From Octopus sinensis (taxonomy: Eukaryota): DNA of 64,000 bases. Both the position numbers and the translations under genes were made by a program. Below are positions 3,302 through 59,146 of this stretch, piece after piece. The stretch covers positions 61,380,001-61,444,000 of the forward strand of contig NC_042998.1 in NCBI RefSeq assembly GCF_006345805.1, written 5' to 3'. Positions within the stretch are counted from its first letter, which is position 1. Each line of letters begins with the position of its first letter. Under the pieces are notes generated by a model that saw only the letters and a program-made list of their open reading frames with translations, made no database searches and had not been told where the DNA came from.

Positions 3302-3632
3302 ACAATTGCAGCATGGAAGGTGTTTATAAGCCATTTAAGAAACACACAAAAGCCGTTCGATTCACTTCAACATTTAAGTTTAATTTGTCAAAATATTTTC
3401 GTCGCTAAAATCCGCGACGTGTTCACTGACAAAAACCCGTGCTGCATCCTTTGTCAGTGAACACGTCGCGGATTTTAGCGACGAAAAATATTTTTTTGAC
3501 AAATTACTTAAAGTGAATGAACGGCTTTTGAGTGTTTCTTAAATGGCTTATAAACACCTTCCACACTGCAATTGTTTTCGTTTCAGCACACGATCTCAGA
3601 TCAAATTACTTGCTATGCGAGTACAACTCCGT
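3302..3632. mobile_element. Palindromic Penelope pLTR-like element in (TA)n
   Basis: Near-perfect inverted arms 3302-3433 / 3450-3575 plus short unique tail, between (TA)n runs; each arm carries a hammerhead-like motif. Confidence 0.7.
3384..3433 (-). ncRNA. Hammerhead-ribozyme-like motif with G3:C8 core swap
   Basis: Minus strand UUUGUCA-GUGAACA-C-GUCGC-GGAUUUUA-GCGAC-GAAA-AUAU-UU-UGACAAA: 7-bp stem I, 5-bp stem II, palindromic minimal stem III. Confidence 0.65.
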
Positions 3633-3640
3633 AATATATA

Positions 3641-4051
3641 TCTTTATATATAAAAGTGAGGTTGTGTGCTGTCTGTCTCCTACGATTTAGATTCCTAACT
3701 ACTCCCACATTTTGCGGTGCAGTTTAACCAAAACCGGTATCTTATAGTCGTGATTCATATCAAGCCCTTCTGGGTATTAGCGCGTGTCTACGATGAGTCT
3801 ACGATGAGTCTACGATTAAAAAAAAAAATTACCATAATTTTTTCCATTTTAATGCATTTTTTTCGCTATTATATAAGGGAAGTAACTCTCTAAAAATGTC
3901 TACGATGAGTCAACGATTTTTTAAAAAAATTAGCATCATTTTTTTCCATTTTTTATGCATTTTTTTGCTATTTTTTGGCTATAACTCTCTAAAAATGCTT
4001 ATATAGTTATTTCCCTTACAAACCCGAGCAACGCCGGGTGATACTGTTAGT
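3641..4051 (+). mobile_element. Non-autonomous Helitron-like element
   Basis: 5' TCTTTATATATAAAAG..TGTCTGTC; 3' hairpin CCCGAGCAACGCCGGG followed by ..TTAG-T. Confidence 0.7.
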
Positions 4052-4130
4052 ATATATATATATATATATATATACACATACATACATACATACATACATA
4101 CATATGTACACTGCTATTATTCCCTAAGGG

Positions 4131-4169
4131 CTAATACAGCTTATTTTGGAAAATCGCCTCATCAGTTGA
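4131..4169 (-). ncRNA. Degenerate hammerhead motif
   Basis: CAA-CUGAUGA-GG..CC-AAAA(G12A)-UAAGCUG-UA-UUAG. Confidence 0.4.
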
Positions 4170-4281
4170 GGATTCTGCCTACTACATCGATTATTCTATG
4201 AAAAACATACCTATATCATCATAGGAACTATACTCTTAGAAACTTTTCGAGAAAATTACAGAGAATTTTTTCAGATGGATG

Positions 4282-4342
4282 GATAACTGAAGAGATGGGG
4301 GCATGGATTTCCACCGCGACATCCGAAACTCAGAGCTTTATC
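4282..4342 (+). ncRNA. Degenerate hammerhead motif
   Basis: GAUAA-CUGAAGA-GAUG..CAUC-C-GAAA-CUCAGAG-CU-UUAUC; 5-bp stem I, U16.1 replaced by C. Confidence 0.5.
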
Positions 4343-4394
4343 ATGGCTACCGAATAATTGTCACATATTACATTTACAGATATACATATATATA

Positions 4395-5272
4395 TCATCA
4401 TCATCATCATCAGCATCGTTTAGTGTCCGCTTTCCATGCTGGCATGGGTTGGATGGTGCAACTGGCGTCTGGGAAGCCAGAAGGCTGCACCAGGCCCAGT
4501 CTGATCTGGCAATGTTTCTACGGCTGGATGCCCTTCCTAATGCCAACCACTCCATGAGTGTAGTGGGTGCTTTTTACGTGCCAGACGAGGCTGGCAAACG
4601 GCCACGATCGGATGGTGCTTTTTATGTGCCATCGACACGGAGGCCAGGCGAGGCTGGCAAACAGCCACGATCGGATGGTGCTCTTTACGTGCCACCGGCA
4701 CGGAGGCTAGGCGAGGCTGGCAAATGGCCACGATCGGATGATGCTTTTTATGTGCCACCGGCACAGAAGCCAGTCGGGGTGGAGCTGGCAACAGCCACGT
4801 TCGGATGGTTCTCTTATGTGCCACCGGCACTGGTATCACAGCTACAATTTCCATTCATGTTGATCGATTTTGATTTTTGATTTTGATTTTGATTTCACTT
4901 GCTCAACAGGTCTTCAAAAGTAGAGTTTTGTGTCCCAAGAAGGAAAGGTATGCATAAGGGACTGAGGCCATGGGTTATGGTCTCACTTGTCCTGCTGGGT
5001 CTTCTCACGCACAGATACTTCCAAAGGTCTCGGATCTCTAGTCATTTCCTCGGTGAGACCAAAAGTTCGAGGTCGTGCTTCACCACTCATCCCAGGTTTT
5101 CCTGGGTCTGCTCTTCCACAGGTCCCTCACCGCTGGGTGTGGCACTTTTCACACAACTATCTTCATCCATTCTCGCCCACATGGCCATACCAGCGCAAAA
5201 CATCTCTCTGCACACCACAACTGATGCTTCTTAGGTCCAACTTCTCTCTCAAGGTACTTACACTATGTCTAG

Positions 5273-5273
<1 letters not shown>
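4395..5273 (-). mobile_element. RTE-clade LINE 3' fragment with tandem-repeat 3' UTR and (ATG)n tail
   Basis: Homologous by eye to the 3' end of the 52.8-57.2 kb RTE; ends ..GCGGACACTAAACGATG..(ATG)n. Confidence 0.85.
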
Positions 5274-5311
<38 letters not shown>

Positions 5312-5313
<2 letters not shown>

Positions 5314-6339
5314 GGGGGAGAAACTAGAAGTAGTTGATAGTTTCCGCTACCTAGGTGACCAAGTTAGTAGTCGAGGTGGATGCTCAGAGAGTGTCACCAC
5401 TAAAATACGAACAGCCTAGGCAAAGTTTAGAAAGCTTCTACCCCTACTGGTGACAAAGGGTCTCTTACTCAGAGAGAAAGGTAGATTGTACGACACATGT
5501 GTGTGAACTGCCATGCTTCATGGTAGGGAAACATGCGTAGGCTTGAAAGAAATGAAGCTAGCATGATCCGCTGGATGTGTAATGTCAGTGTGCACACACG
5601 ACAGAGTGTAAGTGCCCTCACAGAAATGCTTGACATAAGAAGCATCGGATGTGGCGTGCAAAAGAGATGTTTGCACTGGTATGGTCATGAACTATGGATG
5701 GATGAGGAGAGATGTGTGAAGAAGTGCCATCCCAAACAGTTGAAGGAATCCGGGGTAGAGGTAGACCCAGAAAAACATGAGATGAAGTGGTCAAGCATGA
5801 CCTTTGAACCTTGGGCCTCACAGGGGCAATGACAAAAGACTGAGATCTCTGGAGATATGCTGTAACTGTGAAGACTCAACAAATAACATGAGTACATGGC
5901 TGTTTCCTGCACCAGTTTCACATAGCAGCCCCAGCCCATCCAAAGTATCTTGGATCGTAGAACAGCTTGCTGTGCTTACTTTGGATCATAAGGCAACCTG
6001 CTGTGCTTGAGGAGACCTACTGAGTCAAATACATCATCAAAATATATATCAAATGGAAATTCTAGTTGTGATACCTGTGCCAGAGGCACGTAAAAAGCAC
6101 CAACCAATTGTGGCCACTGCCAGCCTTCCCTGGCACCTGTGCCAGTGGCACGTAAAAAGCACTCACTACACTCATGGAGTGGTTGGCATTCAGAAAGGGT
6201 ATCCAGCCTGTTAGAAACCCTGCCAGATAGACTGGAGCCTGGTGAGCCTCCTGGCTTCCCAGACCCTGGTCAAACCGGGCATCCCAGGCTAAACATAGAA
6301 AAACAGACGTTAAACGATGATTTGATGATGATGATGATG
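5312..6339 (+). mobile_element. RTE-clade LINE 3' fragment
   Basis: MRRLERNEASMIRWMCNVSV is identical to the segment in ORF 54455-55813; same 3' tail ending CGTTAAACGATGATTTGATGATG. Confidence 0.9.
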
Positions 6340-6355
6340 CATGTATGTATGTATG

Positions 6356-6396
<41 letters not shown>

Positions 6397-6432
6397 ATAT
6401 ATCTATTCTATCTATCTATCTATATCTATCTA

Positions 6433-6473
<41 letters not shown>

Positions 6474-6590
6474 ATATATATATTCCTGGTTTTAAGGGTA
6501 TTGTGAAAGGCCTGATTGGAGGCCCAACTTTCCAAATTCTTAGAAAAAGCTGAAGTACTGCTGCAATAAGTGTGTGAATCTGGGAGGGGA

Positions 6591-8050
6591 ATATATAGAA
6601 TAAGATCGTAATTAACCAATCCTCCTTTTACCCAAAGCCAGGAACTTTTCAGCAAACTCTCATATATATGGAAATGTGGAGTATATCCCTCAACGAAGTG
6701 AAGATGATGTTTCTGGAACTCTAGATTCGTGCATTGTACCTTGTTTAACAGAGACTACCTATGTATATCAGGGATCAGAGCACAGATGATACTGAAAGCT
6801 AAACTCAACTACATTCACAGCAAAATTTCTTTTTTCTACTCTAGGCAAAAGGCCCAAAATTTTGGGGGAGGGGGCCAGTCAATTAGATCGACCCCAATAT
6901 GCAACTAGTACTTAATTTATCGACCCTGAAAAGCAAAGTCGACCATGGCAGAAATTGAATACTACTAAGGAATGCTAACGGACAGCCTTAATCAATACAT
7001 ATTCTTTTTACTAAGCATTTGTGGAGGGGGCCAGTTGTAGCTAACGTTTACTCGACCCAGTTTGCTGCCTTTCATCATAACCCATATTTTTTTGCTAACT
7101 TCTGCCAGGCCACAGGCCTGAATTGTGCTGGCGGGTGGCCAGTGATTGCTTACAGTCTTCTGGGACCAGGACGGAGTAGTGATGACAGATTCCTGGCAAA
7201 GGGTACCACAATTGCAGGAGCCTATTATGCTTCACTTTTGAGGAAATTAAGAGAAGTTATCAAAATCAAGAGGCGGGGCAAGATCAGCAAAGTTATCCTC
7301 CTCCTGCAGGACAACGCTCCGTTCACAACTCGCTTGTCGCCAGATCAGAAGCACAGGCGTATGGCTATGAACTCCTCCCCCATCCCCCTACTTTCCTGAC
7401 CTTGCACCCTCTGATTTTCACCTCTTCCCAGTCATGAAGTTGTTTTTTGAAAGGAAGAGCGTTTCCCAGATGATGCAGCCTTGATTTCTGAAATCACGTT
7501 GAGGTTGGAGGACCAAGCTGGGGTCTTCTACAAAAACGGTCTCCAGAGCTGCATCAAGCAATGGAAGAAATGCGTAACTCTGGGTGGTTCCTATGTAGAA
7601 AAAGACTAATAACTGTGCCAAGTTTCGTTGCTCTACTGCTATGGGAAGTGGGTCAGAGGCATTACTTATTGAACGCCCCTCGTATATAGAATAAGATCGT
7701 AATTAACCAATCCTCCTTTTACCCAAAGCCAGGAACTTTTCAGCAAACTCTCGTATATATGGAAATGTGAAGTATATCCCTCAAAGAAGTGAAGATGATA
7801 TTTCTGGAACTCTAGATTCGTGCATTGTACCTTGTTTAACAGAGACTACCTATGTATATCAGGGATCAGAGCACAGATGATACTGAAAGCAAAACTTAAC
7901 TACATTCACAGCAAAATTTCTTTTTTCTACTCTAGGCAAAAGGCCCAAAATTTTGGGGGAGGGGGCCAGTCAATTAGATCGACCCCAATATGCAACTAGT
8001 ACTTAATTTATCGACCCTGAAAAGCAAAGTCGACCATGGCAGAAATTGAA
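6591..8050 (+). repeat. Direct duplication of about 370 bp (6591-6959 and 7684-8050)
   Basis: Near-identical blocks beginning TATAGAATAAGATCGTAATTAACC and ending GACCATGGCAGAAATTGAA. Confidence 0.9.
7110..7682 (+). mobile_element. Mariner transposase 3' fragment
   Basis: TIAGAYYASLLRKLREVIKIKRRG..LLLQDNAP, HPPYFPDLAPSDFHLF; right TIR ..TTATTGAACGCCCCTCG-TA. Confidence 0.85.
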
Positions 8051-8577
8051 CTCGGAATGTAAAGACAGACAAAATACTACTAAGCATTTTGCCCAGTGTG
8101 CTAACGTTTCTGCCAGTTTGCTGCCTTAATCACAACAAATATTCTTTTTTACTTTAGGCACAAGGCCCGAAATTTGTGTGGAGGGGGCCAGTTGATTAGA
8201 TCAACCCCAGTATGCAACTGGTACTTAATTTATCGACCCTGAAAGGATGAAAAGCAAAGTCGACCTCAGCGGAATTTGAACTCAGAACGTAAAGACAGAC
8301 GAAATACCACTAAGCATTTTGCCCGGCATGCTAACATTTCTGCCAGCTCACTGCCTTAATCACTGCAAATATACCACTAAGCATTTTGCCCGGCATGCTA
8401 ACATTTCTGCCAGCTCACTGCCTTAATCACTGCAAATATTAATGCATTTATGCTTCTGCTGCTGCCGTGGTCTGTATTTTCTTCAGGAGGAATCAGAGAG
8501 AGCCTTCAAATAAAACATTGACAACATTTACAACAACACAAACAACAGCTATTATAAATATAATACTTAGCTGTTAC

Positions 8578-8706
8578 CTGATATACTGAATTGAATGATA
8601 CGGTTACTGGTTCATTGAGGTTAGTTATCTGAATGTTAGGAATATTTGCAGAAATAATATGACTGGTACTTTTGTTATATTCTTTGGTAGAAGATGTTTG
8701 TATCAC
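8578..8706 (-). CDS. Adhesion GPCR exon K: GAIN subdomain B
   Basis: ctttacAG / GTaaca, 129 nt, phase 0-0; VIQTSSTKEYNKSTSHIISANIPNIQITNLNEPVTVSFNSVYQ (S.IISA...NL.EPV.xxF motif). Confidence 0.92.
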
Positions 8707-8849
8707 CTGTAAAGAGAAGTCATCAAATAAACTAATTTATCCAATAGAAGAGTTCAATGCATTTTTAAAGTATGAAACATCTGTGTTGTTGTAAACTGCT
8801 GTTCAAAGCTATAAAGCCAGAACACAGTCCTTTTTTCTTTTCTGGCAAA

Positions 8850-10130
8850 ATACACAACACAAATTCATGAAATTCCCCTCTAAATAGGAAATGGACTAGA
8901 AGAAGCCATTGCAGTCTTTAAATTTATTGAAATCCAAAAGCAAATAAGATAATAATTAAAAAAAACATACAAAGTCAGAAACCCTGTGTACAAAACTATA
9001 ATGCCAGGTTGAATAATGTTGCAAAAATGATGCAAAATGGGGAAATTATGATATATTTCAATGATATTCTCATGCAATACAGCAACAATAGTGTGTCTGA
9101 CCGTCACCTTTCTAAATTACTTCAAAAACATGTGATTTCAGGCTCTCAATCATCTTCTGCTGCAGACCAGTAAAAGATCTTTCCAGGCCTTCTTTATTGT
9201 CATTTTGAGTTCACCAACAGATGAATACTGTTTGCCTTCACTGTACACAACGTTCATGAGATAACCCCAGGCATTCTCTAGGGGATTAAGGTCAGGACTT
9301 CTTGCTGACCATGTCATGACTTCAACCCCGATTGCATGAAGGAAGTCTAGAGATGCCTTCGTTTTATGAATAGGAGCGTTGTCCTCTTGAAATATGAAGT
9401 TTTCTCCACACAGCTTTCTTCCTTCTTTGTCGATGTCAGCTCCGTCCAACATATCGATGTATCACACAGCATTGAAATGGCCATCCTTGATGACAAGTGG
9501 CAGCTTCCCAGTGGCAGCTATTGCTCCCCATACCATAAGATCTCCTCCAATACATTTACCTGCCCAGTAATATTTATAACCGTCATCGCTGTCCAAATTC
9601 CATTTTTTCTCACCAGAGAACAGAACCCTGGTCCATTTACCATCTCACTGATGCGGCCTAGCAAACTTCAGTGTAACAGCTTTGTGGGAAGGGGACAATA
9701 ACGGATGTCCTAACCACTTATACGGGTGGAAACCAGGGTTCAAAATCACTCTTCATATGGTGGATATCAAGGCTGATGTTTTGATTTTGAAAACAGAAGA
9801 GCAGCATGACTTCTTCACAACTCTGACAATAACCCTTTCATCCTTTTCCGATATAGCCTTGGGAGGTCCACCAGCATGAGCCTTGTAGTAGCTATCAGGA
9901 TCTTCAGAAAATTGTCCACTAGTGTTCTGCTTTGCTGAATCTTCTCGGCAATCTTCCGGTTACTCATTCCTTTCACTTTCAGAGCAAGGATCTTCTCTTG
10001 TTTAATTTCACAAAGCTTTGTAGCTTTAGGCATACTGGAAATGTCATCTGGATCATGGGGAATATGATTGAGTTGAATATTTTCCAAAAGAATCTGGAAT
10101 GGTAGCTTTATAGTTTTGAAGAGTTGATAT
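8850..10130 (-). mobile_element. Degenerate Tc1-type transposon
   Basis: HTH GMSNRKIAEKI (ORF 9815-10246); FIFQEDNAPIH and WSARSPDLNPLENAW (ORF 9150-9452); boundaries approximate. Confidence 0.85.
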
Positions 10131-10994
10131 GCTAGGGATAAAACATCATGGTCATATAAGTGGTGTTCTTTGTTTCCAGTTTTGCATGAGGACATGTCTA
10201 GCCACAAGGAAAGACTACCTTGTTTGAAACAAGAGAGGGTTATCAACTGGAAATCAGGCTCAAGGAATCCTGCCTAGCCTTCACAAGCATGGAAAAATGA
10301 ATCTTAAAACAATGTTGACATTATATGTTTTTATGTGTGTGTGTGTGTATGCCTGTGTGTGCCTGTACCTGTGTGAGTGTGAGAGAGGGAGAGGAAGAAA
10401 GAAAGAAAGAGAGTGTGGGGGAAAGTGAGTGTGTTTGTGTATGTGTGTCTCAAAGAAATTTTTCTTAAGGGACTTGATGTGTTATAACGTAGGGTCCTAA
10501 TGACAAAATATTATAACTTGACCTATTCTGCATTTGCATTTAATTCATAAATGTTAAAAATATAATTATTTTACTCTACAGCTGTATCAAGTGTATGTAT
10601 TGATTGAATTTAAACCCAGCCAACTCCTGAATAAATCAGTGAATGTTTTGTTTGTTGATATATTTATATTGGAACAAAGATCCTGAATAAACTAAGGATG
10701 TCTGGAGTATTTGTTGCTGTGGGGTCCAAAACAGACCAAAATTCAGATATCAATTGATTTGTTGATGTCACTTCTGAGTGAGATGTGTTTCTAACACACC
10801 AAGTCCCTTAGAAGAGGGACAAGTGCTGTTCTGAGTTTGTATATGCATTATTAATGGTACACGTACACACACATACACATACAAACACACACACATATAC
10901 ACCTTTCATCATTTTATCATTTGTCTTTTGCTTGTTTCAGTCATTAGTCCACAGCCAGGCACAGCACAACCTTGAAGAATTTTTGGTCAACGGC

Positions 10995-11412
10995 TAAGGG
11001 GCTGAGTTCCCTTTGAGTGTTGGGCCTCATGGAGACAAAGTGGCTGAGTTCCCTTTGAGTGTTGGGCCTCATGGAGACAAAGTGGCTGAGTTCCCTTTGC
11101 ATGTTGGGCCTCATGGAGACAAAGTGGCTGAGTTTCTTTCAGGCATAGGGCCTCATTGAGACAAAGTTACTGAGTTCCCTTTGAGTGTTGGGCCTCATGG
11201 AGACAAAGTGGATGAGTTCCCTTTGAGTGTTGGACCTCATGGAGACAAAGTGGCCGAGTTCCTTTCAAGCATTGGGCCTCATGGAGACAAAGTGGCTGAG
11301 TTCACTTTGAGTGTTGGGCCTCATGGACACAAAGTGGTTGAGTTCCCTTTGAGTGTTGGACCTCATGGAGACAAAGTGGCTGAGTTCCTTTCAAGCATTG
11401 GGCCTCATGGAG
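10995..11412 (+). repeat. 42-bp minisatellite, about 10 copies, at the start of an RTE 3' fragment (to about 11720)
   Basis: Unit GTGGCTGAGTTCCCTTTGAGTGTTGGGCCTCATGGAGACAAA; runs into GGCAATGACCAAGACC of the RTE 3' end. Confidence 0.9.
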
Positions 11413-12420
11413 GCAATGACCAAGACCTTTGGCGTTATGTCATGCTTGAGGAGAAGACCCATCAAGCCAAGCAAAATTGCAGTTGTGGCAGATGCCAGTG
11501 TCACACAATAGGCACCCATGCTGGTGGCATGTAGAAACACCCATTACACTCTCAGAGTGGTTGGTTTTAGGAAGGGCATCCAGTATCAGACTGGAGCCTG
11601 GCGAATTCTTCAAGTTTACCAGCCCTGGTCAAACCATGCAACCAAAGCCAGCATGGACAATGAACATAATATGATGATGATGATGATGATGATGGTGATG
11701 ATGGTGATGATGATGCTGATGTGTAAATCGCAGGGCTTCATGATATTTGTTCTGTTCTTTGGCCAAACCACTAAGTTACAGGGGCGTAAATACTTCAATG
11801 CCGCTTGTCAAGAAGTGGCAGGGGACAAAAACTGACACAAAGACACACACACAAACAAAACACATGCAACACACACACGTGAAGACACACACATATGCAT
11901 GAATGCATACTCACACACATACACACATGCAATACACACAGCACACACACATATATACATGCATGCACATACACACACACACAACCTGTGCACACACACA
12001 CACAACCTGCACATACACAGCACACAACCTGTGCATACACAACACAGATGCATGCACACACACATGCACACATACACGCATACACAAGCATGCCCATACA
12101 TACACATACAACACACACACGCATGCATGTGCACACACACACACTCACATGCACATGCATGCACACATGCACACACACACACACACACATCCATACATGA
12201 TAGGTTATTTTTTCAGTTTCCATCCACCAAATCCACTGACAAGGCTTTGGTTGGCCTGAGTCTGTAGGTGAAGACACTTGCCCAAGGTAGCACACAGCAG
12301 AGCTGAACCCAGAACCATGTAGTTGTGTTATATTAGTATTGTTTCCTCAATTATCAAAAAGTATGAATTCAAGCATTCTTTAATCAGTTTGAAGAAGAAT
12401 TTCCCATGTTTGTTCCATAC

Positions 12421-12564
12421 CTTGTATAGTTTATCATCCTCAATGAAGAAAAAAGAAATTCGGGAAATGGATGATTGTTCTTCACTTTTCAGATGTTGAA
12501 ATAAACTCCTTGGCAATGAAATGAAGATCTTCATTGTATCTTCTGGCTGTGAGGAGTTGTATAT
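12421..12564 (-). CDS. Adhesion GPCR exon J: GAIN subdomain B
   Basis: tttgtcAG / GTatgg, 144 nt, phase 0-0; IYNSSQPEDTMKIFISLPRSLFQHLKSEEQSSISRISFFFIEDDKLYK (IxLPxxL and RIxF...xxLF-type GAIN motifs). Confidence 0.9.
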
Positions 12565-13019
12565 CTGACAAAGGAAAGTGAAAGGAAAATCGAAATTAAT
12601 AAATAACTACTACTGCTGCTGCTGCTACTACTAATATACTACTACTACCACCACCACCACCACCACTACTACTGGAGAAGGAAAAGATGCACAGAGCTAG
12701 AAATGGAGGCGAGAGGTATGTTAGGGGTAGATATAGTGGGTGACAGAAAGAGGTAGGGGGATGTCGGTGAGAGATACGAGAGGATTTTTAGAAGAAAATA
12801 ATAAGTGGTAAAAGATGATGTTAAGAGTGCTAGATGGGTGACAAAGGAATTCTGCTCCCGTATAATTACAGCATCTGAGGAAATAGTGCTATAGCTATGA
12901 GATTATGGGGGATGGATGTAACGATGATGAGCTGTGAGGGGGCATAGACATTAATGACTTGCTTTTAGGACCTCATTTTAGCTGATATTGACAGGTCTTC
13001 TTGACCACAATGCATTTAT

Positions 13020-13605
13020 TTCTTTATTGCCCACAGGGGCTAAACATAGAGGAGACAAACAAGGAATCAGGTCAATTATATCGACCCCAGTGCATACCTG
13101 GTACTTATTTAATCGACCCCGAAAGGATAAAGCCTAAGTCGACCTCGGCGGAATTTGAACTTAGAAAGTAGCAGCAGACGAAATGCCTTTTTCTTTATTA
13201 CCCACAAGGGGTTACACATAGAGGGGACAAACAAGGACAGACATAGGTATTAAGTCGATTACATCGACCCCAGTGCGTAACTGGTACTTAATTTATCGAC
13301 CCCGAAAGGATGAAAGCCTAAGTCGACCTCGGCGGAATTTGAACTTAGAAAGTAGCAGCAGACGAAATGCCTGTTTCTTTATTACCCACAAGGGGTTACA
13401 CATAGAGGGGACAAACAAGGACAGACATAGGTATTAAGTCGATTACATCGACCCCAGTGCGTAACTGGTACTTAATTTATCGACCCTGAAAGGATGAAAG
13501 GCAAAGTCGACCTCGGCGGAATTTGAACTCACAACGTAACGGCAGACGAAATACCCTAAGCATTTTGCCCGGGGTGCTAACGTTTCTGCCAACTCCCTGC
13601 CTTGA
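13020..13605 (-). mobile_element. Tandem array (3 x about 183 bp) of a second tRNA-derived SINE family (Nin/Deu-domain-like)
   Basis: Repeated TCGACCCCAGTGCGTAACTGGTACTTAATTTATCGACCCCGAAAGGATGAAAG..GTCGACCTCGGCGGAATTTGAAC (reverse-complement B box GTTCAAATTCC); other copies at 6830, 7920-8430, 34300, 34680-35070, 44230. Confidence 0.8.
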
Positions 13606-14145
13606 GCATAACACATTGCTAATCATCCCAATCCTTTGTCATTGTTCTTTGTGCCATTTATCCTTTCCCTTCATTCTTACCTTCTCTTTTCTTTCTTCTC
13701 TCAGCTAAATTTCTATGGTATTTTTGTAATCTCCGCTGAGTAACTTCCTCTCTATAATAATTAGCAATATCTCCTTAAAACACTTGTATATTATCTTTGG
13801 TAATGCTATTCTATTATGCTGGTCACAACCATAAATATTTTAGTTATTTAAATGTTTATTTAAAATAAATAGTGCAGCCTATATTTTAACCCTAAATCCC
13901 TTAAACTAAGCTAATTAAGTAAGCCAATGAAACTGAATAAATGGTACCTTTGAAAATGCTGTCTACAGAATGCTTAAGAAAATGAAGTAAAACTGATTCG
14001 ATGCCACTGAAAGTAGTTAATATACACTTATTCTACAGGATTTCACCACAATCATTGAAACTTTGAAACAAGAATTGCTACTTATCTTTCTCTATTCTTT
14101 GCCTTTGAATTTTTAAATTCTAATCAATAATATTTGGTCCAATAA

Positions 14146-47431: not shown

Positions 47432-47473
47432 GAAAGAATGGAGTCGAACGACGATTTAACAAAATTCTTTTAT

Positions 47474-47554
47474 TCTCGACACATGTTTCGAAGACTGCAT
47501 ATTCTCAATTCCGAAGGAATAAAGGGTGCATTATGCCATCTTCTCATCAGGAAA
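47474..47554 (-). ncRNA. Type I hammerhead ribozyme motif (mirror copy)
   Basis: Reverse-complement arm: CUGAUGA-GAAGAU..GUCUUC-GAAACAUGUGUC-GAGA. Confidence 0.78.
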
Positions 47555-47640
47555 GACAAGGAACTTATGTCAGCATCATGACGAACAAAAAGTCATCTAA
47601 AAGTTTTTGTTCATCATGATGCTGACATAAGTTCCTTGTC

Positions 47641-47721
47641 TTTCCTGATGAGAAGACAGCATAATGCACCCTTTATTCCTTCGGAATTGAGAATATACAG
47701 TCTTCGAAACATGTGTCGAGA
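47641..47721 (+). ncRNA. Type I hammerhead ribozyme motif, canonical core
   Basis: UUUC-CUGAUGA-GAAGAC..GUCUUC-GAAA-C-AUGU-GUC-GAGA; GUC cleavage triplet at 47715-47717. Confidence 0.8.
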
Positions 47722-47949
47722 ATAAAGGAATTTTGTTAAATCGTCGTTCGACTCCATTCTTTCATTTATCTATAGTAAAAAAACACACAAATTTCCACAC
47801 GAATGCACATGATTTCTGCCCTTGGCATGTAGCTTCAACCGTGCTTTCTGACGAGAATTTGCTACCCGAATTATCCATACTAGGATAATTCATTCAACTA
47901 CTTGAACATATATATATATATATATATACATATAAATATATATATATAT

Positions 47950-48475
47950 TTTTGGGGAGCTTGTTTCAGCTCAAAGGTGCAGCCATGCTGATGCACTGCC
48001 GTTTTGTGCTACGCTGTTATTACGAAGAACCTCTTCTAATATGTGGCACTTGGTGAAGAATGGAATTTGACAAAGCTATTCACATTTGCACCTCTTGCCA
48101 TGAGGTAGGTTCATCTGGGACTCTCGACAGGAAGATGTCCAGCTTTGATTTAAAAACTGCTACATCTACTTTGTGCAAGTTCCTCAGACTCTTTGGGAGA
48201 ATATTAAAAAGCTGTGGGCCATTGAAACCCAGGCTGTTGCAGAAGCTGGTCCTGAAGCGTGATGGCATTGTGGGGATCTTTGGCACTATGCAGTGTCGTC
48301 CCGTTCTAGCATTGGTGTAGCTTACAATGCCAAAATTTGGCACAATTCCTTCCAGGAACTTCCAGACATATATTACTGCATACCTCTCCCGTCTTCTCCC
48401 TAGGGAGTAGAGTCTTAGCTGTTTCAACCTTTCCCAGTAGCTGAGCTGTTCCAAAGAGACGATCTTCTTTGTGAA
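47950..48475 (-). mobile_element. CR1/L2-group LINE 3' fragment
   Basis: LSYWERLKQLRLYSLGRRRER..GPQLFNILP..FKSKLDIFLSRVPDEP; a related remnant lies at 33280-33450. Confidence 0.8.
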
Positions 48476-48504
48476 TCTATATAAATATATTATATATATA
48501 ATAT

Positions 48505-48537
<33 letters not shown>

Positions 48538-48619
48538 ATATACATATCTATTTATATATATACATTTATATACTTAGATTTATATATATATATATATATA
48601 TATACACTCTTTCTCTCTT

Positions 48620-49005
48620 TTCTCTTTTACTTGTTTCAGACATTTGACTGCGGCCATGCTGGAGCAGCGCCTTTAATCGAGCAACTCGACCCCAGGACTT
48701 ATTCTTTGTAAGCCCAGTACTTATTCTATTGGTCTCTTTTGCCGAACCGCTAAGTGACGGGGACGTAAACACACCACCATCGGTTGTCAAGCAATGCTAG
48801 GGGGACAAACACAGACACACAAACATACACGCACACACACATATATATATACATATATATGACGGGCTTCTTTTCAGTTTTCGTCTACCAAATCCACTCA
48901 CAAGGCTTTGGTTGGCCCAAGGCTATAGTAGAAGACACTTGCCCAAGGTGCCACGCAGTGGGACTGAACCTGGAAGCATGTGGTTGGTAAGCAAGCTACT
49001 TACCA
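48620..49005 (-). mobile_element. Young copy of major tRNA/CORE-like SINE
   Basis: CpG-rich copy, near-identical to the inverted copy at 58190-58512. Confidence 0.85.
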
Positions 49006-50132
49006 TACATGAAGGTTACGCTGATTACTACGCACAAAATAAAAAAATGTAAAATGTTTTGTAGATTAGGTAGGCATAATTCGCCCCTGCTTTTCAATGT
49101 CAGTATTAAGGCTATGCATAGAACTGCTGTAGTACATGTGCTGTGTACATTCCTACAAAAACATTTTCTTTATGTGCTATAAAGCCCGAAGTGATTCTGC
49201 CTCCAACTCAGTCGCGTGCCTGTGTTTTGCTTACTTTTTTGTGTTTTTTACTACATAAATGTCACCGTCTGCCTACCCTGAGTAATTACTGGTGGTGCAT
49301 GCCTGATTTGTGTGTATGACAGAGATAGAAATCCATGCTTCTGAAAAGTTATGGTCATTGTTATTGAATAACAACAGGGCTTTGATACTTTAACTTTTCC
49401 TCTGATAAAAAAAAAATAATTGTCCTAATTAAAAATGTGGTGGAGTATCTATGCGTCCTCAAAGTCCATTCCCTCCTCACAGTGGTGGGGATGCTGGCAA
49501 CAGGTAGTGTCAGAGCTATGCCGTCGGGAACTTCGGTTCCTGGTAGGGCCACCCAAGGCGGATTGGTCTGACACCGAGTGGTATTATGGCCACAACCCAG
49601 CAGACAGGGCTCTGGTGAAAATCCTCGGAGTGTCTGCTTCGTGAACTAGCAGCTCTTGGTCATTCTGTCCCTGTGTCTGCGGACGATCTGCAGCAAACAG
49701 GATGTTTCCACATGCGGGATTGTAGGGGACCGCTTGTGAAATCCACATATTCCCACGAATATATATTTATATATATAAAATGAGATAGGGATTGAAAAAT
49801 TCAACCCACCATGGGATAACATATATCCAATATACTGCTAGATAGGTACCCAACAAGACTAATACATAGATGTTAAAAATTGCCAAGCAATTAGTTCATC
49901 TATTGTATTATATGGGCAAAGGTAATAATATTACCGTAAATTAATACTACAAAATTAGAAAATGGAGAAACATACTTAAATCAATAAAACATCAACAATC
50001 AGATGATACCCAATCAATACTTTATTACACCATTACATATCAGTAAAGGCATTATACAAAATATAAAGTAAATATAAATAGACAAGGAAATAGAAATATA
50101 AAATATAAAATATAATATGTAATTATATCATA

Positions 50133-50242
50133 TCTGACAGTTGTTTCGGCAGTAAGGGCAGTCATACCTCATTTAACCTATAAGTCATAAAGGCAGGTAT
50201 AAATGAGGCATTAACAAGGATGCCCCACGGCCTCTTCAGAGA
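50133..50242 (-). ncRNA. Hammerhead ribozyme motif with long stem II extension
   Basis: UCU-CUGAAGA-GGC-[GGGCA..CCUCAUUUA..UAAAUGAGG..UGCCC]-GCC-GAAA-CAACUG-UC-AGA; lies in an AT-rich element of about 1 kb (49775-50775) bounded by (TA)n. Confidence 0.8.
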
Positions 50243-52784
50243 ATTTAATTTGTTATAATTGTGAAAAAAATTATTTTTCCATATACATATAAATATAAAA
50301 ATATAAAAATGTAAAATATAAAAACTTGTGCATAAACTCCATAATGCTACACATATATATAATACACATTGGTACAATAATGCAAGGTAAACAAAACAAA
50401 ATAAAACAAAATATATATCAGTGTATATATTAATATTAATAAGCACAGTTATTATACATATTTAGATAATAGTTCCAAAAACTAACACATAGGGAGATGT
50501 ATGCGCACTACCATTTAAATTAAAATCATCCCTATACCTGAAAATAATAATAAAAAAACCACAGTTCAGTTCATAAAATTATAAACCTATAAAAGTCAAT
50601 ATAAATTACTATTAATATTAATAATAATAATAATAATAGATACAGTTAAGTTAGCACCAAGTACATCCATTCAAAATCGAAATAACTATGAGTTTAGTTA
50701 TCCTGTCCGCTTGATATTGATTATTCGTGTGCTATTTTTTCCACCTTGTTTTGTATTTGTGTGCTTACCCTGGTATATATATATATATATATATATATAA
50801 CAAGAAATAGTATTTGTCTCTTTTTTTTAGAAACAAAAGGGCTTATAGGACTGCAAAAAAGAAGTGCTCAAATGTGAGACAAAAATAAATGAGGAAAGTA
50901 AAAAAACTTTAAAAAATATTTTTAATCGTTTGACAAAACTTTTTTAGTTGTTTGAAATTTTATTTTATCTTAGTTTTTTAGTTTCTTTTTTGGAGGGGGT
51001 AGTAAAGCACAGAACTGGCTGTGTCGTAAGTAGTTTGCTTACCAACTACATGGTTCCAGGTTCAATCCAACTGCATGGCACCTTGGGTAAGTGTCTTCTA
51101 CTATAGCCTCGGGCCGACCAAAGCCTTGTGAGTGGATTTGGTAGATGGAAACTGAAAGAAGCCCGTCATATATATGTATATGAATATTTATGTGTATGTG
51201 TTTGTGTGTCTGTATTTGTTCCCCCAACATTGCTTGACAACCGATGCTGATGTGTTTATGTCCCCGTAACTTAGCGGTTTGGCAAAAGAGAACGCTAAAA
51301 TAAGTACTAGGCTTACAAAGAATAAGTCCTGGGGTCGATTAGCTCGACTAAAGGCGGTGCCCCAGCATGGCCCAAGTCAAATGACTGAAACAAGTAAAAG
51401 AGTATGGCACACTTTAGAAATTTTATGATTTTTTAGTCGTTTATATTTACCTTTTATGACAGGCCGTTCTATTAGTATTTTATTTGCACATATATTTTAC
51501 CTTCTGTATTTTTATGCATATGTATTTTTTTAAAATCTTTCATGTGTTTAAGAACCATGGTGATATTTATATATGTTTAAATGCTTGAGGCATGGTGTTA
51601 TATAAAGTGGTTGACTCGAATTTAATGTTTGTTCTATAACCAATGTTTCTTTATATATATATATGTATGTATATATATATACATACATATATATATATAT
51701 GTGTGTGTGTATGTATTTATGTATTATGTAGTGTGTGACTGTTCTTCGCCCTAAATTATCCTTCATTTTTATGCGCTGATAATTTCTCCCTTTTCTCCAT
51801 GTTACTACGATAATTTGCCCAAACTTCGCCATCTTGAAGTCTGTTTCTTTAGTAAACTTCCGCCTTGTCCGCCCTTAAAACTCAAAATCCCCTTCCGGTC
51901 AATTTATACTTAAAAGGTCACCCCATGTGCTCTATTATTCATTCATCTAGCAGCGAGCGATGCCAGAGTATAGACAAGCTAAAATTTTCTTTTCACATCT
52001 TGACCGCCGTACTACATTCGCCTATAACACTAAAAAAAATGTATTATCTATTTACTAATACTAATACGCTTGTTTGTTTACTGGGCTAAACAGTTGACAT
52101 CGTCTTTCCTAAATATCCCCTTATTATTATGTGCTGATAATTTCTCCCCTTCTCCATATCACTTTGTCTGTTCTTCGCCCTAAATTATCCTTCATTTTTA
52201 TGCGCTGATAATTTCTCCAACTTCGCGCATTTGCATTTCGCGGTGCACCCGCCCTTGCCCACCCCCACCACCAATACCGGATATCTCTATTTTGCTCCAT
52301 CTATACCGGATATCTCTTCTCCCACCACCATTATGGGTGTCTACTCCTCGAACCCCCCTCTTCAATACACTATTTCACCATGTATTACCCCTCCTGATAT
52401 CCTACGTTCTACTTGCCTAGAACCTGTCATCGTTTCGCCGTACACCCCTCCCCACTGGTGCTCCCCTATATTACTGCACCGTCTCCCCTTCCCCCTCACT
52501 CTCTCTTCTCCCTGCTAGAACCCCCCACCCCCAGCCCATCTCTAGAATATCAATGTTTCTGCTACACTGCTTAAACCACGTCGCTTAATGACCATAATGC
52601 TTGCTTATAATACTACTAACACCTAGAATTTCAGTATTTCTACCACAGAGCTTACATCTACACCAATGACTTTAGTGCTTGTGCTTACAATGCTGCTAAC
52701 ACCTGACCCTGCCTACCGCAGGGGCCAGAACCTTAACATGCCTAAATGCTTGAATGTTGTCAGGTCAGAAGAGAGAGAGATCAG

Positions 52785-55700
52785 ATGAAAATGCCTAAAA
52801 ATCGATCACCGCCACCACAACAACCCTCTTCTTTTCAGGCGCCGAATTGCACCCCTCCCCCCACATCTCCTTCCCAGTTTTCAGAGTTGGCACTGTCAAT
52901 GTTGGTACACTGAAAGGTAGGTCTAGTGAGATTGTAGAGATGCTTGAGAGAAGACGGGTTGATGTATGCTGCATACAAGAGGTAAGGTGGAGAGGTGCTT
53001 CAGCCAGGGTCCTCACAGGCAAGGCACATAGGTATAAAGTCTTCTGGCAAGGTAACATGGATGGGGTAGGGGGTGTAGGCATTCTCCTTGCGGAGAAATG
53101 GGTGGATAAGGTCATAGAAGTTGTCAGGGTTTGCGACAGAGTGCTTAAGCTCAGGTTAGTCCTACAGAGTGGCACGGCTACGATTATCTCCGCCTATGCC
53201 CCACAAGCGGGCCTACCAAATGATCAGAAGGACCACTTTTATGATACCCTTCTACAGGCTATCTCAAAGACTAGTGGCAAGGACCTCATCTTTGTGGGTG
53301 GAGACTTTAATGGGCATGTTGGGCGGGAATCGGGTATCTTCACTGGGGTTCACGGTGGCCATGGTATTGGCTCCAGAAATGAGGAGGGAACTAGACTACT
53401 GGAATTCTGTGATGCATGTAACCTTTTAATCTGCAACACTAACTTCAGGAAGCCTGACTGCCACCTTATAACTTATCAGTCAGGGGACTCCGCTAGCCAA
53501 ATAGACTTCATCCTCACCAGACAGCGGGATGCAGGGTCGCTCTTAAATACAAAGACTCTCCCGGGTGAAGAGTGTATCCCTCAGCATAGGCTAATAATTA
53601 GTGACTTTAGGCTTGAGGCCAGAAGGACTCCAAGAAACAGACCAATCCAGAAAAGAAGGATTTGGAAGCTAAAGAACCCTTCACATGGTCAGAGATTTAG
53701 GGACATCCTCATCAAGAAATTTGATGAGAGGGAGGAGGAGCTACAGACGTCAGACATAGAAGGTAGCTGGAAATTCCTACGGGACAGCTTGCTGAGTGCC
53801 ACAGACCAAGTCTGTGGATGGTGCATAGTCCCTTCCAGACCTAGAGTTACGTGGAGGTGGAATAGTGCAGTAGACAAAGCCATTAGTTCTAAGAAACAGG
53901 CCTGGAGAGCCTGGAGGGATGGGGGTAGCAGGGAACCGTACCAAGTAGCCAAAAGGGAGGCCGGGCGGCAGGTATACATAGCCAAAGATATAGCAGAAAA
54001 GAAGAAGTTTGCCAATGTCCAGCGACGTGAGGACCAAAGAACTGAGGTATTTCGTATTGCTAGACAGTGTGTGAGAGAAAATAGTGATGTTACAGGAGTG
54101 AAATGTGTCCGCATGGATGATGGGGCACTTGCCTTTAATGTGGAGAATGAATGGGAGGAGGAGAGCCTGCCAAATGTTGACCCAGTAGAGGGACCAGCTA
54201 TCCGAATAGACGGCTCCCTAGTAGATACAGCAATTAAGGATATGAAACCGGGTAAAGTCCCCGGCCCATCAGGAATCACTGCTGAGATGCTTAAAACAGC
54301 TGGTTATGTGGGCTTTGGCCTAGTCACCCGTATTGTTAACCAGGTAGTTCACAATGGAGTCATACCCAATGACTAGCGTAGCAGCACCATAGTCAACTGC
54401 TACAAGGGTAAGAGTGATGCTCTAGATAGAAATAACTACAGGGGTATTAAACTGTTGGATCAGGTGATGAAGACCACAGAGAGGGTCATAACCCATCTCA
54501 TTAGGGAGAGAATTTGCTTAGATGAGATGCAGTTCGGTTTTGTGCCAGGTAGAAGCACCACTGATGCTATATTCCTGGTCCGACAACTTCAGGAGAAGTA
54601 CCTAGCTAAAGATAAACCCCTCTACATAGCTTTTGTGGACTTGGAGAAAGCCTTTGACAGGGTTCCCCGATCCCTTATCTGGTGGTCGATGCAGAAACTG
54701 TTGATTGACGAATGGCTAATAAGGGCTGTACAGGCTCTATACAGAGAGGCTGTCAGCAAGGTTAGGATTGGCAACGAATATAGTGAAGAATTCCGGGTAG
54801 AAGTAGGTGTACATCAGGGCTCAGCCCTCAGTCCCCTTTTATTCATCATAGTCCTCCAGGCAATAACAGAGGAATTCAAAACAAGTTGCCCCTGGGAGCT
54901 CCTCTGTTCTGATGACCTGGCCCTCATAGCAGAATCACTACCGGAACTAAAAAAGAAATTTCGGATGTGGAAACAAGGGTTAGAATCAAAGGGCCTTAGA
55001 GTAAATGTAGTGAAGACCAGTTATAGTATGCAGAAAGGCGAACTCAGCACCCCCCCCCCATCGGGCAGGTGGCCCTGCTCGATCTGTAGGAAAGGTGTAG
55101 GTAGAAACTCCATAAGATGCACCCAGTGTAAGCTATGGACGCATAAGAGGTGCAGCAACATCAAAGGGAAATTAACTGATAAGATAGCTTTCATGTGCGG
55201 CAAATGCACAGGGACAATAGACACCACAGACACTCAAAAAACAGATTCCATCACACTCCAGGGGGATAAACTAGAAGTAGTTGATAGTTTCCGCTACCTG
55301 GGTGACCAAGTTAGTAGTGGGGGTGGATGCTCAGAGAGTGTCACCACTAGAATACGAATAGCCTGGGCAAAGTTTAGAAAGCTCCTACCCCTACTGGCGA
55401 CAAAGGGTCTCTCACTCAGAGTGAAAGGTAGATTGTGTGATGCATGTGTGCTAACCTCCATGCTTCACGGCAGTGAAACATGGGCCGTGACTGCAGAGGA
55501 CATGCGTAGACTTGAAAGAAATGAAGCTAGCATGATCCGCTGGATGTGTAATGTCAGTGTGAATGCACGACAGAGTGTAAGCACCCTGAGAGAAATGCTA
55601 GGCATAAGAAGCATCAGATGCGGTGTGCAAGAGCGACGCTTGCGATGGTATGGTCATGTACTGCGGTTGGATGAGGAGAGATGTGTGAAGAAGTGCCACT

Positions 55701-57246
55701 CCCGAACAGTTGAAGGAATCAGGGGGAGAGGTAGACCCAGGAAGACATGGGATGAGGTAGTCAAGTATGACCTCAGAGCGTTGGGCCTCACTGAGGCAAT
55801 GGCGAAGGACTGAGACCTCTGGAGATGTGCTGTGACTACTAAGACCCGGGATGCTCCCGGCACCAGTTCCGCATACCCCTTGCCCATCCAAAGTACCTTG
55901 GATCCCGGAACATCTCACTGTGCTTGAGGAGACCTGTTGAGTCAAGTGCATATACATGAACATCGAACCAAATATCAATGGAAACAGTAGTTGTGATACC
56001 TGTGCCGGTGACACATAAAAAGCACCATCCGAACGTGGCCGTTGCCAGTGCAGTCTCCACTGGCTTCTGTGCCGGTGGCACATAAAAAGCACCATCCGAA
56101 CGTGACCGATGCCAACCACGCCTCGAATGGCTTCTGTGCCGGTGGCACATGAATATCGAACCAAATATCAATGGAAACAGTAGTTGTGATACCTGTGCCG
56201 GTGACACATAAAAAGCACCACCCGAACGTGGCCGTTGCCAGTGTAGCCTCCACTGGCTTCTGTGCCGGTGGCACATAAAAAGAACCATCCGAACGTGGCC
56301 GATGTCAACCCTGCCTCGAATGGCTTCTGTGCCAGTGGCACATGAACATCGAACCAAATATCAATGGAAACAGTAGCTGTGATACCTGTGCCGGTGACAC
56401 ATAAAAAGCACCATCCGAACGTGGACGTTGCTAGTGCAGCCTCCACTGGCTTCTGTGCTGGTGGCACATAAAAAGCACCATCCGAATGTGACCGATGCCA
56501 ACCCCACCTCGAATGGCTTCTGTGCAGGTGGCACATAAAAAGCAACATCCGAACGTGGCCGATGCCAGCACCGCCCCGACTGGCTTCTGTGCCGGTGGCA
56601 CATAAAAAGCAACATCCGAACGTGACTGATGCCAGCACCACCTTGTCTGGCTTCTGTGCCGGTGGCACATAAAAAGCACCAACCGATCGTGGGATCCCGG
56701 AACATCTCGCTGTGCTTGAGGAGACGTGTTGAGTCAAGTGCATGAACATCGAACTAAATATCAATGGAAACAGTAGTAGTTGTGATACCTGTGCCGGTGA
56801 CACATAAAAAGCACCATCCGAACGTGACCGATGCCAACCCCGCCTCGAATGGCTTCTGTGCCGGTGGCACATAAAAGCAACATCCGAACGTGGCCGATGC
56901 CAGCACCGCCCCGACTGGCTTCTGTGTTGGTGGCACATAAAAAGCACCATCCGAACGTGACCGATGCCAGCACCGCCTTGACTGGCTTCTGTGCCGGTAG
57001 CACAAAAAAAAAAAAAAAGCACCAACTGATCGTGGCCGATGCCAGACCCCTCTCGCACCTGTGCAGGTGGGACGTAAAAAGCACCCACTACACTCGCAGA
57101 ATGGTTGGCGTTAGGAAGGGCATCCAGCTGTAGAAACACTGCCAGATCAGACTGGAGCCTGGGGCAGCCCCTGGCTCCCCAGACCCCGGTTGAACCGTCC
57201 AACCCGTGCTAGCGCGGAAAACGGACGTTAAACAATGATGATGATG

Positions 57247-57248
<2 letters not shown>
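52785..57248 (+). mobile_element. Near full-length RTE-clade LINE (APE endonuclease - RT - PHD-like finger), inactivated
   Basis: ORF 52847-54376 has APE motifs (GTVNVGTL, QEVRW, SAYAPQ, GDFNGH, IDFIL); premature TAG at 54374-54376; in-frame ORF 54455-55813 has RT motifs (QFGF, FVDLEKAFDRV, GVHQGSALSPLLF, CSDDL); tandem-repeat 3' UTR and (ATG)n tail. Confidence 0.95.
55960..57075 (+). repeat. Higher-order tandem repeat in RTE 3' UTR (about 60-bp units within about 190-bp units)
   Basis: GCCGGTGGCACATAAAAAGCACCATCCGAACGTG recurs more than 10 times; AATATCAATGGAAACAGTAG recurs near 55971, 56164, 56357 and 56757. Confidence 0.9.
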
Positions 57249-57314
<66 letters not shown>

Positions 57315-57419
57315 CATACACATATATACGACGGGCTTCTTTCAGTTTCCGTCTACCAAATCCACTCACAAGGCTTTGGTCGGATTAGTAGATAGAAATT
57401 GAAAGAAACCTGTCGTGTG

Positions 57420-57465
<46 letters not shown>

Positions 57466-58189
57466 GTATGTGTGTGTGTATGTGTGTGTTTGCATGTCTG
57501 TGTTTGTCCCCCCAACATCGCTAGTGTGTTTACGTCCCTGAAACTTAGCGGTTCGGCAAAAGAGACCGATAGAATAAGTGCTAGGCTTACAAAGAATATG
57601 TCCTGGGGTCGATTTGCTCGACTAAAGGCGGTGCTCCAGCATGGCCAGTCAAATGACTGAAACAAGTAAGATATTGTGTATCTTAAAAATATACCTCATG
57701 TAACATTTATCTTTTTTAAAGAAATTGTGGGTGTTGGGCTCTTTTTTTATATACAGGTTACCTTAGCATAGAACAGTGGACCTTTTTGACTACTACGTCA
57801 CTCTGGTGGACACCCCCTAGCCATTTGATGTTTAAAAATTAGTTCTATAGATACTTCTTTCAAAATTCCCCTTTTCCATCCTCACATTCACTTGTGTAAG
57901 ATTGAATTATGAAAAACATTAAGAAATCTTGCTGTTTCTTGTGGGAAATACCTCTATAGCAAAGTTTTTCTCGTGGGCCCTTAAAATAAATCCTGTGGGT
58001 CCCCAGTTTACTATTTTGCTTGTGTGGATCCCCCAAAAAATCTTATAAGGCCCCCTGTTGAGAACCACTGCCACTTACTGCTACTCCTCTCCTTTTGCAC
58101 AAATTGCAGACACTACTCTGATATGCAAGCTGCTCTCCAAACCAGATGATTCTAGGTTCAATCTCCAATAACAAACTTTGTCTTTTGTG

Positions 58190-58512
58190 AGTGGCTGTGT
58201 GGTAAGTAGCTTGCTTACCAACCACATGGTTCCGGGTTCAGTCCCACTGCATGGCACCTTAGGCAAGTGTCTTCTACTATAGCCTTGGGCCAACCAAAGC
58301 CTTGTGAGTGGATTTGGTAGACGGAAACTGAAAAGAAGCCCGTCATATATATGTATATATATATGTGTGCGTGCGTGTATGTTTGTGTGTCTGTGTTTGT
58401 CCCCCTAGCATTGCTTGACAACCGATGGTGGTGTGTTTACGTCCCCGTCACTTAGCAGTTCAGCAAAAGAGACCAATAGAATAAGTACTGGGCTTACAAA
58501 GAATAAGTCCTG
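58190..58512 (+). mobile_element. Major tRNA/CORE-like SINE copy
   Basis: GGCTGTGTGGTAAGTAGC A-box and GGTTCAGTCC B-box-like head, CCTTAGGCAAGTGTCTTCT core. Confidence 0.85.
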
Positions 58513-58514
58513 GC

Positions 58515-58902
58515 AGTGAGTTGATGTCAGTATATAGTATTTACAAAAAGTTGATAATTACGCCAGGATTTTATTTTTGACTGTAAATGTTATATTATTC
58601 ATCTGATTTTAATGAAATTTGAAATTTTGGTAAATTTTGAGGTAAGGGAGATGGCAAAGGTTTTAACTTAATTCCAGAGGAATTGGAAGGCAACAAGCGT
58701 GAGTCAGCTTTTTTCAGAGACTATTCTATCGATTTTCAAGATATGTCACACGTGATTACAGTTGATGTCCATAAGTTGAATGCGGCATACATCTTAATGA
58801 GTACTATTTGGCAAGGGGAACATAGACGATTTCAATACAAGGTCAGAGGTAGGCTTAACTTCAACACGAAAAACATGAGCAACACCGGATCCAACTGCTA
58901 GT
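58515..58902 (+). mobile_element. Helitron-like 3' fragment
   Basis: Ends GAGCAACACCGGATCCAACTGCTAG-T, resembling the 3' end at 4022-4051. Confidence 0.5.
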
Positions 58903-58959
58903 ATAGATATATATATATATATTTTGTGTTTGTTTGTTTTTTTTTTATTTTTGGGATTA

Positions 58960-59010
<51 letters not shown>

Positions 59011-59110
59011 TCCCAAAAATAAAAAAAAGAACAAACACAAAAAACATAACAACACGAGTACGTAGTACAAGTGATGTATTAGCAGACGCTCAGGGAAGGA
59101 AAGAAAGATG

Positions 59111-59146
59111 GTTTAACGTTTCGAACAGACACTCTTCTTCAGAAAC
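59111..59146 (-). ncRNA. Minimal hammerhead ribozyme motif
   Basis: GUUU-CUGAAGA-A-GAG-UGUCUG-UUC-GAAA-CG-UU-AAAC; same family as 42395-42429. Confidence 0.65.

Follow-up and report, generated by a model that had tools for sequence, protein, structure and literature searches.

The window analysed here is a 64,000-nucleotide (nt) stretch of Octopus sinensis DNA (contig NC_042998.1, positions 61,380,001 to 61,444,000 of the forward strand) from a genome of 2.7 Gb, and it lies within a single minus-strand gene for an adhesion G-protein-coupled receptor (GPCR), with adhesion-GPCR proteins of octopus matching one exon at 86-100%. The introns of this gene hold eleven hammerhead ribozyme motifs at eight insertion sites (Table 1). 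Exon mapping places every site in an intron, in agreement with the first-pass annotation, which had located the motifs in the introns of one gene at roughly one locus per 8 kb (8 loci in 64 kb). We read the motifs as hammerheads in the pseudo-long terminal repeats (pLTRs) of seven endonuclease-bearing Penelope-like families, and the short copies that carry them as stumps in TA repeats, likely dead ends, left behind by the insertion mechanism proposed below; we put the probability of this reading at about 0.85. That the stumps are truncated ends of autonomous Penelope-like elements, a known kind, is highly probable.

Twelve type I hammerheads had been listed, each by the low end of its motif, and direct reading together with the family copies upholds all but 4131(-), which lacks G12; other family G copies read differently at this point, and the change is private to the window copy. 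Both strands were scanned with a minimal type I descriptor permitting C3:G8, G3:C8 or U3:A8; earlier, strict descriptors had given 2 and 4 matches. This relaxed-core scan recovered 10 of the 12 listed sites and missed 4131(-) and 41899(-), the latter, the mirror arm of 42044(+), because its helix III is mutated. Over 60 block-wise dinucleotide shuffles, perfect-core hits averaged 0.15 per shuffle (maximum 2), compared with 8 in the window; when one deviation was tolerated, the shuffles averaged 2.85 (maximum 7) and the window gave 14. The contrast is optimistic because the thresholds were loosened after three perfect hits to catch the listed sites. One of the eight perfect hits, 9907(-), within 9830-9915 (-), is absent from the earlier list; it sits inside an apparent Tc1/mariner transposase remnant and is probably due to chance. 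An Rfam scan returned no hammerhead among 78 matches at E<=1, since the motifs are too reduced for the models. The type I core boxes, the 3:8 pair, GAAA, UH and helices I and II are present, as expected of minimal Penelope-type hammerheads. The window hammerheads are real and well above chance.

The eleven motifs fall into seven families, A to G, which bears out their description as several unrelated sequence families. Each window site was searched genome-wide, with 40 candidates scored per search and 25-30 loci fetched, so that all family counts given here come from the best-matching copies. Candidate copies numbered 589 for A (query 3303-3575), 278 for B (41773-42211), 3480 for C (42311-42500), 2438 for D (47426-47770), 276 for E (39389), 1245 for F (50133) and 1225 for G (4282). 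Family F copies are 94-99% identical, family E is the oldest, and the copy at 59111 is a diverged relative of family C. The family majorities have complete cores in A (as G3:C8), C, D, E, F and G, while B has C9, not A9. The G3:C8 core is intact in 38 of 39 family A arms. In family C, 8 of 17 arms (copies L061-L090) have C for U at core position 4, and a family related to C, beside an RT-EN (reverse transcriptase-endonuclease) frame in locus L125, has U at core position 6. The window copies at 4287 (G) and 39469 (E) carry C for U at 16.1, which breaks the cleavage triplet; U16.1 is kept in the majorities of their families (42/49 and 25/26, respectively).

Helix III is palindromic and able to pair in a dimer in six of the seven families, the exception being B. 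Its duplex energy is -7 to -11 kcal/mol in D, E, F and G, only -0.2 and -1.7 kcal/mol in A and C, and +1.4 kcal/mol in B. The ribozyme is predicted to act only as a dimer of same-sense copies. Copies within a family are too alike to say much about stem covariation: one helix II pair in family D varies (G-U 17, A-U 12, G-C 4; n=35), and other stem variants mostly break pairs. Core identity about equals downstream identity in all seven families, with no clear excess of core conservation, and individual copies therefore look neutral. Support for a functional fold comes instead from its retention in seven unrelated sequences and from the 3:8 swap.

These properties bear on whether solo copies are kept for cutting or regulating the host pre-mRNA, which is very improbable. 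Four of the five solo copies are indeed sense to the host gene, but the majority that the first-pass annotation had pointed to is not significant (P=0.375; 5/6 and P=0.22 if a degenerate copy is counted). The cleavage triplet is broken in one of the four that are sense, the core identities are those that neutral decay predicts, and single minimal motifs gave no cleavage in the part of PMC4209133 available to us. As the ribozyme is predicted to need a same-sense dimer, hardly any activity in the host pre-mRNA would be expected from arms on opposite strands or from solo copies in introns.

The motifs had been taken for non-autonomous ribozyme retroelements. This is not supported: every family has longer copies that continue, on their upstream side, into an RT and/or EN frame of Penelope-like type, and the window copies are therefore truncated ends of coding elements. 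The first-pass annotation had proposed to look for linkage to Penelope RT/GIY-YIG open reading frames (ORFs); a link to an RT and/or GIY-YIG-type frame was found in every family and is weakest in C and G. For family A there are 285 exact matches of the upstream motif, and an RT+EN frame lies between inverted ends in three of four long regions fetched. Locus L311 holds a stop-free RT+EN frame of 793 amino acids, 62% identical to the family B RT. A Pfam search of the family A frame gave no hit; its 162 relatives are mostly unnamed, with a few named reverse transcriptase domain proteins. Among the best 30 of 181 matches, no family A copy runs past the tail into an ORF; the link was found upstream instead. 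Family B shows a GIY-YIG motif upstream in 7/30 loci, and locus L124 holds RT, endonuclease, untranslated region and hammerhead in that order. An endonuclease-like frame lies about 500 nt upstream in 6/30 family D loci, upstream in 2/25 family E loci (L149/L247 and L137) and about 2 kb upstream in all three long family F loci, where the DNA is continuous at 95-97%; in each case, as in the family C locus below, the frame runs in the direction of the element end. This continuity also disposes of a fixed family F 5' end at 50726, as copies continue upstream into the endonuclease frame. In family C a Neptune-like RT/EN frame is upstream in one of 30 extended loci (L273). For family G, window positions 4106-4263 translate as an ORF start after a tail and by eye resemble the N-terminus of Hydra-1_Obim in the portion seen of the PMC8557442 supplement; a diverged family G end also lies below an endonuclease-like frame in L053. 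A tblastn search with the L121 frame, itself without a Pfam hit, brought up the frames of D, E, F and G, which are endonuclease-like only and are named from motifs, while A and B show both RT and EN. By eye, A, B and C have a CX3-4CxxC linker with CCHH-type residues, and F has CxxC and CxH motifs. D, E, F and G would belong to the Hydra clade and A, B and C to Neptune/Nematis, a putative assignment.

Table 1. Features of the window, with hammerheads also located by core position 3
Feature	Position	Strand	Core position 3	Remarks
Host gene, adhesion GPCR	2065..62934	-		12 exon matches by mapping one octopus protein; gene runs past both window ends
Family A palindrome, head-to-head	3303-3575	.		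one-sided tail 3576-3634; whole 3303..3634
Family A hammerhead	3384-3433	-	3426	G3:C8 core
Family A hammerhead	3450-3503	+	3457	G3:C8 core
Family G	4106..4381	+		ORF-start piece 4106 to about 4263 joined to element end
Rejected motif, chance CUGAUGA	4131..4170	-		antisense strand of family G ORF-start piece; no G12
Family G hammerhead	4282-4342	+	4287	U16.1 changed to C in window copy
Family E	39200..39518	-		inverted arm, short, at about 39484-39518; tail runs towards roughly 39200, outer limit approximate
Family E hammerhead	39389-39474	-	39469	U16.1 changed to C in window copy
Family B palindrome	41773-42211	.		tail 42212-42269; whole 41773..42269
Family B hammerhead	about 41899-41942	-	about 41937	C at core position 9
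Family B hammerhead	42045-42088	+	42050	C at core position 9
Family C solo end	42311..42500	-	42425	hammerhead 42395-42429; 3-bp helix II; ACGU helix III palindrome
Degenerate C-like end	42938..43038	-		core destroyed; nhmmer E=3e-13; absent from the first-pass list
Family D palindrome	47426-47770	.		tail 47771-47907; whole 47426..47907
Family D hammerhead	47474-47554	-	47550	canonical core
Family D hammerhead	47641-47721	+	47645	canonical core
Family F, young AT-rich 3' region	49759..50726	-	50239	hammerhead 50133-50242 (long helix II); tail 49759-49943
End of eighth hammerhead-bearing family, 47 nt	50727..50773	+		head to head with F copy 5' end; 5-nt microhomology
Stub of C-like end (same end as next row)	58922-58961	+		faces the 59007-59190 (-) end across a TA run
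C-like solo end	59007-59190	-	59142	hammerhead 59111-59146; whole feature 58922..59190

In five of the families (A, B, D, F and G) copies finish at either of two fixed 3' positions, a short end or a tail end, with tails of about 57 nt in A, 56 in B, 150 in D, 170-185 in F and 59 in G. A TA/ATT run follows 99 of 128 short ends, compared with 5.3% of random flank positions, which bears out the suggestion that TA microsatellites are targeted; in family E it follows only 5 of 16. A reading of the short ends as splice acceptors holds for F and G and fails for B, and an apparent terminal inverted repeat around 39389, considered as a DNA-transposon end, is actually a short inverted arm. Palindromes with two tails were absent in A (0/30) and D (0/12). 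Different families pile into the same TA tract at L053, L113 and L195, and in the window B and C share one (41773-42500). The eighth family, met at 50727-50773, forms hammerhead palindromes elsewhere (L256 and L041), its hammerhead being seen in L256.

The 5' ends of family A were surveyed in 30 loci chosen by the tail alone, which gave 48 arms. Twenty of these end from -1 to +4 relative to a single site, which lies 30 nt below a TATA-like box; the interval from -2 to -148 contains no arm end, and two arms extend further (2 of the 30 loci extend upstream). No arm of the 48 starts at the predicted ribozyme cut (+59), the nearest lying at +53, and the family A arm ends thus speak against ends set by self-cleavage. 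For family D, 30 copies were selected as reaching +6, and 15 of them end at -2 to +5 of a TCATT initiator located 28 nt below a TATAA; of the remainder, 4 end between -17 and -65 and 11 extend beyond -200. Of 14 family A arms beginning at +1, 10 are preceded by an extra G, at a position occupied by C or T in long copies. This pile-up may reflect run-off at the capped start of the RNA.

These ends also bear on whether the short copies are self-propagating, non-autonomous retrozyme-like elements whose transcripts would be cleaved by the hammerhead, closed into circles and returned to the genome by a Penelope RT acting in trans. Stumps do far outnumber ORF-bearing copies, as the two upstream extensions among 30 tail-selected loci indicate, and one locus has the expected form: L239 (G000:C2:33078000-33087000) holds a head-to-tail array of three family G units, each 375-382 nt long and each with its own hammerhead, which fits the definition of a retrozyme in the available part of bioRxiv 10.64898/2026.07.22.740005, and the window G copy shows the same type of ORF-start-to-end junction. 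This retrozyme-like array sits behind a short inverted arm. The eight window loci include no tandem copy, however, and no family A arm starts at the cut. The G junctions vary from copy to copy (19 compared), which argues for separate template jumps and not one amplified monomer. Moreover, every family is linked to coding frames, and the stumps have no TATA box and so would not be transcribed alone. We regard such self-propagation as unlikely.

Of 30 family A palindromes, 15 have the longer 5' reach in the tail-less arm and 9 in the tailed arm, and 6 have arms of equal reach. Fold-back of a single cDNA (complementary DNA) would leave one arm wholly within the other, whereas two cDNAs from the same kind of RNA would not. 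Nevertheless, the palindromes could have arisen by fold-back or by antisense self-priming, with the family A 5' wall being a splice boundary or an RT pause. PMC3846280 (available in part) proposes self-priming on an antisense template, the subfamily allele agrees between the arms in 25 of 26 family A palindromes (one row being a local duplicate), the arms are on average nearer to each other than to other copies, and the A wall coincides with a textbook 3' splice site. Yet in 15 of the 30 palindromes each arm holds sequence absent from the other, in L311 the tail-less arm bears a 2.4-kb frame, the window F copy is fused to the end of a different family, and the D wall has TATA/initiator spacing with no acceptor AG. 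On balance we consider a fold-back or self-priming origin doubtful, though the least improbable of the alternatives. In the mirror test the sister arm was closest in 0/19 palindromes of A, 3/17 of D, 2/6 of B and 1/14 of G; as the sister arm is rarely closest and private changes are mostly one-armed, there is no strong homogenisation of arms. Locus L345 (G000:C4:17371000-17375500) has three near-identical family D palindromes in a row with TA runs between them, attributable to duplication at the DNA level or to an assembly artefact.

In the model that we propose for the stumps, the RT-endonuclease of the element would nick both strands of a (TA)n tract, and cDNA synthesis would start from each nick at either of two set positions in the RNA, giving a short end or a tail end. 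The enzyme would then run back 130-190 nt on the 5'-most repeat of the RNA, reading across the hammerhead, still uncut, until it reached the capped 5' end. Where microhomology joined the free ends of two such cDNAs, a palindrome with one tail would result; a single cDNA would give a solo copy. The run-off and twin-priming steps stand at about even odds. More tentatively still, and just short of an even chance, the stumps may be a record of insertion in which twin priming, a cap-copied extra G at run-off and end joining of independent cDNAs, sometimes across families, are each preserved.

Several observations weigh against parts of this scheme. On the coding side, Pfam matched neither RT nor GIY-YIG in the frames of A, C, D-type, E and F, so that their identity rests on motifs and tblastn; the family B Pfam hits lie below curated cut-offs, and the family C link is one locus, across low-complexity sequence. 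At the 5' ends, the start site is a prediction from motifs and copy ends, and the family A site has the branch point, pyrimidines and AG of a possible 3' splice site. In palindromes, resemblance between the arms can displace end positions near +3, and four of the ten extra Gs may come from the partner arm or from a duplicated piece, leaving 6/10 (P=0.02); in family D only two of six cases have the extra G. Unequal arms may also stem from later deletion in a hairpin, and later deletions or insertion beside an older copy could mimic both the unequal arms and the F fusion. Finally, the genome does contain short family G arrays in which every unit has a hammerhead.

Comparison with described systems, from sources available to us in part, shows what is shared. 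Minimal type I hammerheads of metazoan Penelope-like elements cleave weakly and only as dimers, and occur in opposite-strand pairs 100-700 bp apart (PMC4209133). The octopus motifs resemble them in being type I with a short palindromic helix III, in forming many unrelated families per genome, mostly as single copies, in pairing on opposite strands at such distances, and in an extra base after position 9 (here in A, B and C). They are set apart by G3:C8 in A and C9 in B, where the natural swap there is U3:A8, also listed as such in PMC3088659, and by loop II inserts of 40-80 nt in D, E and F. Endonuclease-bearing Penelope-like elements have an inverted copy, a tail and TA targets (PMC8557442), and octopus Hydra-1_Obim has a hammerhead and a (TA)n preference (PMC8557442 supplement); PMC3846280 describes head-to-head repeats with TATA and initiator, and proposes self-priming. 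Our families share with these elements the head-to-head inverted copy, one-arm tail, partial tandems, (TA)n targets and pLTR TATA and initiator, but tails here measure 57-185 nt compared with 30-40 nt, and the portions of PMC3846280 and PMC8557442 available to us contain neither the 5'-end pile-up nor the pattern of either arm being longer. For green anole Poseidon in vitro, two internal RT start sites define the tail, the target is AT-rich, both strands are cut and extended, uncut RNA is the main template, and an engineered C3G/G8C change partly rescues cleavage (PMC11167929). The two 3' ends with a tail and the AT-rich target recur here, whereas G3:C8 is natural and family-wide here and engineered there; that study concerns one element in vitro, and its available part does not address palindrome formation. 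Non-LTR retrozymes, defined as head-to-tail tandems with a hammerhead per unit (bioRxiv 10.64898/2026.07.22.740005), are likewise type I, short, ORF-less and derived from Penelope-like ends, unlike the window loci in being tandem (0/8 here) and unlike the stumps, whose ends are not at the cut site. The field is reviewed in PMC6765202.

Other features of the introns lie apart from the hammerhead loci. A degenerate Neptune-like Penelope RT fragment at 21100-21764 (+) is intronic and antisense to the host (tblastn E=8e-41), with no hammerhead end seen downstream. A near-complete long interspersed nuclear element with endonuclease and RT frames (525 and 478 amino acids) occupies 52799-55813 (+), antisense to the host gene, and two frames of a cysteine-rich DNA transposase remnant lie at 14817-16105 (-), with matching contigs in runs guessed to be RNA. 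A short exon match at 41513-41566 (-), to a related octopus protein and not to the closest annotated one, may represent an exon that was missed or is used alternatively; it lies 200 nt from the family B palindrome. Four RNA runs mapped to the host exons gave no usable splice joints, and a look-up of the family F stretch in RNA data listed only contigs and no RNA dataset.

Hammerhead-bearing Penelope ends in TA repeats are already published, also for octopus, and the inventory as such is ordinary. In partial coverage of the literature we found no published statement of a natural G3:C8 core, nor of start-site run-off or twin priming in Penelope-like elements; the fixed G3:C8 of family A, the fixed C9 of family B, and stump 5' ends of A and D at the TATA/initiator site and not at the cut were not found in print. 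The end statistics bear on how inverted ends form and on the role of the hammerhead in Penelope-like elements (PMC8557442 and PMC11167929, each as available in part), and they predict a pair of independent cDNAs, each passing an uncut ribozyme and ending at the capped start. Natural variants such as A (G3:C8) and B (C9) escape descriptors with a fixed CUGANGA, so that hammerhead counts in such genomes are likely too low. If true, a G3:C8 pair fixed beside a near-intact ORF would show the ribozyme to be under selection despite an uncut copied template.

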